Source: a virus (lineage: Duplodnaviria > Heunggongvirae > Uroviricota > Caudoviricetes). Taken from it: DNA of 26,071 nt. The DNA is taken from IMG/VR virus record IMGVR_UViG_2909309443_000007; one strand, 5' to 3'. Positions 12,051 to 13,752 of the stretch are shown here, one piece after another. Position 1 is the first letter of the stretch, and the number at the start of each line of letters is the position of its first letter. Below the pieces are notes generated by a model. It had not been told where the DNA came from. It did not search any database and saw nothing but the letters and a program-made list of their open reading frames with translations. The position numbers were made by a program, and so were the translations under genes.

Positions 12051-12336
12051 TCAGCGGCGACGGTTAACGGCAGGCGGTACGCCCCGCCCAAGCCAGAGAT
12101 GACAGCTTCCGCCATCATCCGGCGAAATCCGGTCTATCCAGAAGTTTTCCTCACCGATGGTCAGCGTGTCGCCGCGCCGCAGCTGCCGCACATCATCAGT
12201 CCGGACAAACAGGGACGGGCTGGAGCCTTCAACGCGCACGCCCTGTCCGGCATAGCTGATATTTTCAGGGTCATCAAAAACACCACGTATCACAGCACCG
12301 GACTGCTCACCGGATGTCATGGTGGCTGACGTTCCC
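12051..12336 (-). pseudogene. Head-tail joining protein FII, C-terminal fragment
   Basis: MGTSATMTSGEQSGAVIRGVFDDPENISYAGQGVRVEG…PPAVNRRR matches recalled lambda FII from about codon 23. Joined directly to the truncated portal frame. Confidence 0.7.
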
Positions 12337-13752
12337 ATGTCCGGCTTCTATCAGCATCACCGCTTCCTGTACTTCTTTCAGACCATCGATGGCCATACGA
12401 CCGGAGCCTATCCAGTCACAGTTCCCCCAGGCGCTGCGGGCTTCCTGAAAGCTGAAACGCGCTTTTGAAGGTAACGTCACCACGCGGCGAGCGATGGCCT
12501 CTTCCAGCCAGCACAGAAACATCTGGCTCGCCTGACGGGATGCGACGAATTTTCGCCGCCCCATAAAGTGCGCCCACGACTCGTTCGCGCTGGCCCGTGC
12601 CGTGGAGTAGCTCATCTGGGCGTAATTCCGGGAAAGCTGCTCATACGAGACACCCAGCCCGGCAGCGATATACCGCAGCAGTGACTGCTCAAACACGGAG
12701 TAGCCGTTATCCGTATCCTGAGCCGTCTGCAGGTTCAGTGAGTCACCCGGCATCAGGTGCGGTACTTTTGCGCCTCCCAGCCGGACCGGCGCTGCGGCGT
12801 AATACGCGGCAATTTCACCAATCCAGCCGGTCAGCCTGTCCCGCTGCTCCTTACTGTTCGCGCCCAGAATAAAATCCATCGCTGACTGCGTATCCAGCTC
12901 ACTCTCAATGGTGGCGGCATACATCGCCTTCACAATGGCGCTCTGCAGCTGCGTGTTCTGCAGCGTGTCGAGCATCTTCATCTGCTCCATCACGCTGTAA
13001 AACACATTTGCACCGCGGGTCTGCCCGTCCTCCACGGGTTCAAAAACGTGAATGAACGAGGCGCGCCCGCCGGGTAACTCACGGGGTATCCATGTCCATT
13101 TCTGCGGCATCCAGCCAGGATAGCCGTCCTCGCTGACGTAATATCCCAGCGCCGCACCGCTGTCATTAATCTGCACACCGGCACGGCAGTTCCGGCTGTC
13201 GCCGGTATTGTTCGGGTTGCTGATGCGCTTCGGGCTTACCATCCGGAACTGTGTCCGGAAAAGCCGCGACGAACTGGTATCCCAGGTGGCCTGAACGAAC
13301 AGTTCACCGTTAAAGGCGTGCATGGCCACACCTTCCCGAATCATCATGGTAAACGTGCGTTTTCGCTCAACGTCAATGCAGCAGCAGTCATCCTCGGCAA
13401 ATTCTTTCCATGCCGCTTCAACCTCGCGGGAAAAGGCACGGGCTTCTTCCTCCCCGATGCCCAGATAGCGCCAGCTTGGGCGATGACTGAGCCGGAAAAA
13501 AGACCCGACGATATGATCCTGATGCAGCTGGATGGCGTTGGCGGCATAGCCGTTATTGCGTACCAGATCGTCTGCGCGGGCATTGCCACGGGTAAAGTTG
13601 GGCAGCAGGGCTGCATCCACACTTTCACCCGGTGGGTTCCACGCCCGCAACTGCCCACCAAATCCGCTGCCACCGCCGTGATAACCGGCATATTCACGCA
13701 GCGATGTCATGCCGTCCGGTCCCAGAAGGGTGGGAATGGTGGGCGTTTTCAT
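12307..13752 (-). pseudogene. Portal protein B, C-terminally truncated at the deletion joint
   Basis: 481-aa ORF matching recalled lambda gpB through …EVQEAVMLIEAG, then 10 unrelated residues and a stop. Confidence 0.75.

Follow-up and report, generated by a model that had tools for sequence, protein, structure and literature searches.

A base-resolved portal-FII joint in a decaying lambda-type prophage of Escherichia coli, very probably one of four scars of illegitimate deletion

Introduction

Rac, DLP12 and Qin of E. coli K-12 are cryptic (defective) lambdoid prophages. The element described here is likewise an ordinary cryptic lambdoid prophage, early in deletional decay. It resembles the cryptic prophages of E. 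coli in that integrase, immunity and cargo genes are kept, lysis, packaging and virion genes have been lost internally, and partial pseudogenes are left behind. It differs from them in being young, with flanks that retain at least 99.5% identity to a complete prophage occupying the same site, and this allows base-level mapping of each breakpoint. Prophage decay by deletion has been reviewed in general terms (PMC6379469). The phenomenon is textbook, and the truncated genes are already flagged as pseudogenes by the PGAP annotation pipeline.

Compared with the head block of phage lambda, W-B-C-Nu3-D-E-FI-FII (NC_001416, nt 2633-7965), the element has an identical gene order, and its truncated products W', B' and 'FII show 92-99% protein identity to their lambda counterparts, whereas lambda nt 4250-7677 are missing, and with them the portal C-terminus, C, Nu3, D, E, FI and the FII N-terminus. 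We analysed this loss in a stretch of 26,071 nucleotides (IMG/VR record IMGVR_UViG_2909309443_000007), the whole of which is called the window below.

Results and Discussion

A cryptic prophage between potB and potC

The window is 100% identical to the complete genome CP024266.1 over 21,446 bp (3,911,098-3,932,543), and a near-identical prophage is present in six chromosome assemblies from Bangladesh (E8, E54, E1316, E1648, E1654 and E1739), the host lineage presumably being enterotoxigenic E. coli. In E8, the element lies between the host genes potB and potC, with integrase and excisionase genes together at one end, adjoining potC; this int end is beyond the window. In the literature on CP024266 and on enterotoxigenic prophages at potB, we found no description of this element. 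Beside int, xis and the genes for immunity and replication, it still has hokD, lom, two tRNA genes, a DNA methyltransferase gene and an invertible tail-fibre segment. The virion genes missing in the window are all present in an orthologous prophage described below.

The B'-'FII joint

All late-gene remnants around the joint (J3; Table 1) lie on the minus strand. In a DNA alignment of the joint region with the 3' region of lambda B and the 5' region of FII, the window tracks B to ...GAAGCCGGAC and then FII from ATGGGAACG..., and the AC dinucleotide at the switch is common to both parents. In a megablast against the intact orthologue, the two aligned blocks overlap by these 2 bp, and there are no inserted bases at the joint. 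In lambda coordinates, B is retained to nt 4249 (471 codons and one base) and FII picks up again at nt 7678, which corresponds to a loss of 3,428 bp; measured against the intact orthologue, the loss is 3,425 bp. Removed are the 3' end of the portal gene, C/Nu3, D, E, FI and the 5' end of FII.

As the number of bases lost is not divisible by three, the portal frame runs into ten foreign, out-of-frame residues and then a stop. By BLASTP, residues 1-471 of B' match lambda gpB (533 aa) with 465/471 identities up to ...EAVMLIEAG; the tail HGNVSHHDIR has no counterpart in gpB, of which the C-terminal 62 residues are absent. The FII remnant is without its first 22 codons and its native translation start region; it is identical to gpFII at 91/95 positions over residues 23-117, and its frame shares 32 nt (12307-12338) with that of B'. 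These matches are far beyond chance. In Pfam searches, B' matched PF05136 (Phage_portal_2; E = 1.1e-96) over profile positions 2-354 of 354, yet it falls short of the 533 aa and the C-terminal region of a full-length portal protein; B' represents a fragment of the gene and no functional member of the portal family. The 'FII product matched PF05354 (Phage_attach; E = 1e-17) over profile positions 17-96 of 99, and the ORF covers only residues 23-117 of the 117 aa expected of a gpFII-family member. In the sibling genomes, PGAP calls the portal gene 'missing C-terminus' and the head-tail joining gene 'missing N-terminus', both as pseudogenes.

An initial annotation of this DNA had proposed a B'-'FII deletion joint, with a portal frame that follows gpB to ...MLIEAG before ten unrelated residues and an overlapping frame that starts at about codon 23 of FII. 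The alignments confirm this observation, including the opening of the second frame at Met23, and support its interpretation as a deletion. The joint had been placed near 12337 with a possible microhomology; the microhomology exists, of 2 bp only, and the position is corrected to 12339/12340. The exact joint, the 2-bp microhomology, the out-of-frame loss and the presence of three further deletions are thus refinements to that reading.

Table 1. Joints, late-gene remnants and later deletions of the prophage (positions in the window)
Feature	Position	Strand	Microhomology at joint	Description
Joint J1, L'-'J	9165-9167		3 bp (TTC)	3,629 bp lost: L 3' end, K, I, J 5' half
Joint J2, Z'-'H, in frame	11953-11955		3 bp (AAT)	2,658 bp lost: Z 3' end, U, V, G, T, H 5' end
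Joint J3, B'-'FII	12339-12340		2 bp (GT on + strand, AC on gene strand)	3,425 bp lost
Joint J4, W'-to-holin-region	13884		1 bp	4,834 bp lost: W 5' end, A, Nu1, cos-like region, endolysin, holins
ORF spanning J1	7313..9211	minus		C-terminal part of J tail-tip protein, lambda gpJ residues 543-1131
L remnant	9165-9239			25 codons
M, minor tail protein	9239..9568	minus		only full-length morphogenetic gene left between W and lom
Z'-'H fusion ORF	9565..12039	minus		824 aa; gpZ residues 1-30 and tape-measure protein from about residue 48
'FII remnant	12051..12338	minus		95 aa; gpFII residues 23-117, opens at internal Met23
B' ORF, truncated portal	12307..13752	minus		481 aa; gpB residues 1-471, HGNVSHHDIR, TGA stop
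W' ORF	13749..13940	minus		63 aa; last 49 residues of gpW, preceded by a new N-terminus
Further deletion, 4,675 bp	4956-9630		3 bp	in E54, L009, L016
Further deletion, 1,050 bp	11451-12500		5 bp	in L028; J2 and J3 both removed
Further deletion inside B', 1,000 bp	12539-13538		6 bp	in L019, L026

The intact orthologue and the other three deletions

An orthologous intact prophage of 46 kb occupies the same potB/potC site in E. coli 504838 (NZ_CP025856.1), with the same integrase, excisionase, repressor, methyltransferase and tRNA genes as the window element. Its late region is complete (Nu1, A, W, B, C, D, E, FI, FII, Z, U, V, G, T, H, M, L, K, I, J), and its W-to-FII block is 98.6% identical at the DNA level to Escherichia phage 1H12 and other lambda-like records (Lambdavirus). 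The DNA identity between window and 504838 is 99.5% over 11953-12340 and 100% over 12339-13884, and between these two flanks the intact prophage holds the extra 3,425 bp, in which lie portal codons 472-533, the gene for the S49 protease C with Nu3 nested in it, D, E, FI and FII codons 1-22. The initial annotation had listed the portal 3' end, C, Nu3, D, E and FI as lost, and these are exactly the genes that the missing DNA encodes.

A megablast of the window against the 504838 prophage gave five collinear blocks of 98.6-100% identity separated by four clean gaps (J1 to J4), which together amount to a loss of 14,546 bp; J1, J2 and J4 are all within 5 kb of J3. The retained blocks differ from 504838 by 0-2 mismatches each outside one patch. 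This patch (11311-11944, 634 bp of H), adjoining J2, holds all 38 mismatches of the M-H block, with about 6% divergence, and outside it the two sequences are at least 99.9% identical. It has the look of a patch recombined into the tape-measure gene of one lineage, which makes 504838 an imperfect parent at J2.

When 22 lambda late proteins were searched against the window by tblastn, W, B, FII, Z, H, L and J were found as fragments and M as an intact gene, together with a lom homologue; Nu1, A, C, Nu3, D, E, FI, U, V, G, T, K and I gave no match anywhere in the 26 kb. A relocation of the capsid genes within the window is rejected by the same search. The sibling genomes have no second lambda-type head module, W, B, FII, Z and H being matched at one place only; judging by these six genomes, the capsid genes are presumably missing from the rest of CP024266.1 too. 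Downstream of FII there is the Z'-'H fusion and not an intact tail module, and the W' ORF is annotated by PGAP as a head-tail joining protein. A blastn search with lambda nt 1-200 located a cos-like region in the intact prophage (L003, 18160-18235), inside the J4 interval, and gave no match to it in the window. The exact lambda cosN 12-mer is missing from the intact orthologue as well, so a search for this 12-mer is uninformative.

Overall, the genes lost comprise the terminase, the cos-like region and the lysis, capsid, tail-shaft and most tail-tip genes. As a consequence of the four deletions, the element is unable to lyse the cell, to cut and package DNA, or to build heads or tails.

Microhomology and the origin of the deletions

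The parental breakpoints of J3 have 2 bp in common, and the surrounding 30 nt are otherwise unrelated. The flanks are collinear, the change is a simple loss, a few identical bases are found at the joint, and there is no long repeat. Homologous recombination between repeats is rejected for breakpoints of this kind and, since the two parents share only AC, site-specific recombination is equally unsupported. By itself, the microhomology at J3 is not significant (P about 0.16 for at least 2 bp at a random joint), and the microhomology argument rests on the pooled joints. The four basal joints (3, 3, 2 and 1 bp) sum to 9 bp vs 2.7 expected (P = 0.0075), and nine joints in the prophage family sum to 31 bp vs 6 expected (P about 8e-9). 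Pooled short microhomology is a signature of RecA-independent illegitimate recombination, be it slippage/template switching or microhomology-assisted end joining.

We therefore regard J3 as very probably the scar of an illegitimate deletion in a decaying E. coli prophage, and as one of four such scars. The deletion would have been a spontaneous one, for which few shared bases suffice, in a lambda-type prophage between potB and potC. A break or replication slippage may have joined B just after codon 471 to FII codon 23 via the 2-bp AC, discarding 3.4 kb with the portal 3' end, C-Nu3, D, E, FI and the FII 5' end, and the out-of-frame fusion gave the portal ORF its ten foreign residues and the stop. 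The four losses, J3 among them, are collinear, range from 2.7 to 4.8 kb in size and carry 1-3 bp of microhomology at the joint. Structure and parentage, the genes lost, the microhomology, the distribution and the subsequent erosion are all shown; the molecular route may have been slippage/template switching or end joining, and independence from RecA is probable.

To follow the joints across strains, 141-bp probes centred on each of the four joints were searched against 5,426 complete RefSeq E. coli genomes. J2, J3 and J4 were found in the same 6/5,426 genomes, and J1 in 4 of those 6. Among the contigs, every one with J3 also carries J2 and J4, and J1 too unless a later deletion has removed it. 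No intermediate with only some of the four basal joints was found in the 5,426 complete genomes or among the contigs with exact B' or W' proteins, where only more-decayed derivatives occur.

A sequential accumulation of the deletions is the simplest account, because further single deletions arise one at a time in sub-lineages, although no partial intermediate among the contigs sampled bears it out. Conceivably, all four deletions came from one replication-based event of the MMBIR/FoSTeS type, in which the fork made serial forward template switches at 1-3-bp microhomologies. The joint presence of J2, J3 and J4 in every carrier (and of J1 wherever no later deletion took it away), the lack of partial intermediates, the very short microhomology at all four joints, and the collinear blocks in the same orientation, nearly identical to the intact prophage, would all agree with such an event. 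Nevertheless, we consider it improbable: the deletions of the sub-lineages clearly come singly, the same prophage in E925 decayed independently by two others, and sequential loss is sufficient. Moreover, missing intermediates are expected if the sampled strains are one clade descended from a four-fold deleted ancestor, and the joints are free of inserted or inverted template-switch fragments. If a single event were true, it would be a natural bacterial counterpart of the eukaryotic MMBIR/FoSTeS rearrangements and a one-step inactivation of a prophage.

Continued erosion in sub-lineages

Among the sister strains, several successive stages of the decay can be seen. Three further deletions with 3-6 bp of microhomology were found (Table 1); the one in L028 extends from the 3' end of B' through 'FII and Z' into the 5' end of H. 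In L013 and L025, the J remnant is apparently interrupted by an insertion sequence (transposase gene). The reference strain E925 (NZ_LR883050.1) carries the same potB/potC prophage with two independent deletions of about 12 kb each, whose breakpoints, C'-'J (0 bp) and A'-'DUF977 (8 bp microhomology), are unlike those of J1-J4. In the unrelated isolate F138 (NZ_OY754382.1), a prophage has a C'-to-G deletion. Both resemble the window element in that D and E are lost while W and B are left, and both differ from it in that the portal gene is intact.

On its own, J3 matters little beyond explaining a prophage that forms no particles and providing a clean marker for one E. coli clade, defined to the base. 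Together, the intact orthologue, the four-fold deleted form and the further-eroded forms make a small natural time series of the dismantling of a lambda-type prophage, which could serve to calibrate the rates and the mechanism of prophage decay.

The remnants might instead have been kept by selection, for example if B' or the Z'-'H fusion acted as a dominant-negative product against the assembly of superinfecting lambda-like phages. The Pfam portal domain is complete in B', which shares 99% identity with lambda gpB, the Z'-'H fusion is in frame, and W and B survive in the independently decayed prophage of E925. We find this very unlikely, since the fragments are dispensable in L019 and L026 (1,000 bp deleted inside B') and in L028, and this further erosion of B' argues against a domesticated function; in addition, the copies are all clonal and nearly identical with no signal of purifying selection, and the late-gene activator Q appears frameshifted in the genome of the window.

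That the element is compact by nature, as a phage satellite that always lacked capsid genes, has hardly any probability: int, xis, immunity and replication genes are indeed kept while the capsid genes are missing, but both sides of J3 are broken genes whose sequences match a single intact prophage of 46 kb at the same attachment site with at least 99.5% identity. PICI-like elements and cos-satellites keep a cos or pac site that a helper recognises, whereas here the cos-like region falls within the J4 loss and the terminase is deleted too, leaving no packaging, and the fragments show secondary loss.

Distribution and authenticity of the joint

The exact 481-aa chimeric B' protein was found on at least 24 contigs (30 index blocks), which come from a complete genome, several NCBI drafts, ENA metagenome scaffolds and Logan read-run assemblies; the exact 63-aa W' product was found in 45 index blocks. 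Lambdoid prophages are a classic source of mis-assembly, and six of the records that match come from a single WGS project with assemblies at chromosome level, but a collapsed or mis-joined repeat between prophages is scarcely credible and, with B' on so many contigs from separate sources, effectively ruled out, as CP024266.1, an independent complete genome, has the identical joint, and so do NCBI drafts from several separate WGS projects, scaffolds from ENA metagenomes and Logan assemblies made from different read runs, and the sibling genomes hold no second copy of the genes to collapse.

Two partial matches to the joint region were rejected as unrelated. The one in isolate F138 (H8) is the C'-to-G deletion mentioned above, and the one in GPEC1356 (H7; NZ_CM142777.1, L004) is a rearrangement with an A'-'H junction. 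GPEC1356 carries a different lambdoid prophage with a tandem head-to-tail duplication in which C through T occur twice, and the two copies are linked via a truncated fragment of terminase A beside a shortened tape-measure gene.

Other features of the prophage

Several features outside the late-gene remnants were observed. The two tRNA genes (14425-14501 and 14599-14674, minus strand) lie just upstream of the late-region remnant and encode a tRNA-Arg (anticodon tct) and a tRNA with the anticodon CAT, which is read as Met by ARAGORN and as Ile by PGAP. Farther on, a two-gene cassette (19370-20779, plus strand) encoding a DUF6731 protein and a 159-aa protein sits on the opposite strand between the Q-side genes and hokD. 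The content of this slot varies in near-identical prophages, with AbiH in L012, a Fic protein in L013, and a protein kinase with a PP2C phosphatase in L020, and from its gene content the slot looks like a variable cargo or defence hotspot. The Q antiterminator gene (20785-21322, minus strand) is apparently frameshifted in the window and in CP024266.1 (78 + 115 aa in L008); E54, 504838 and several draft contigs carry an intact version of 174 aa. A stretch of 27 bp (19063-19089) is missing from E54 (L007) and from L009.

At the potB end, a gene for a class I SAM-dependent methyltransferase (324-992, plus strand) lies amid remnants of tail-fibre-assembly genes and is conserved in all examined versions of the element. 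The invertible tail-fibre segment spans 3.1 kb (1428-4583) and is bounded by 33-nt inverted repeats (1428-1460 and 4551-4583) that are 94% complementary. The recombinase gene beside the segment is a short remnant of 64-72 aa, so the inversion probably depends on an invertase encoded elsewhere. In the window, the segment has the same orientation as in E54 and the opposite one to that in E8 and E925.
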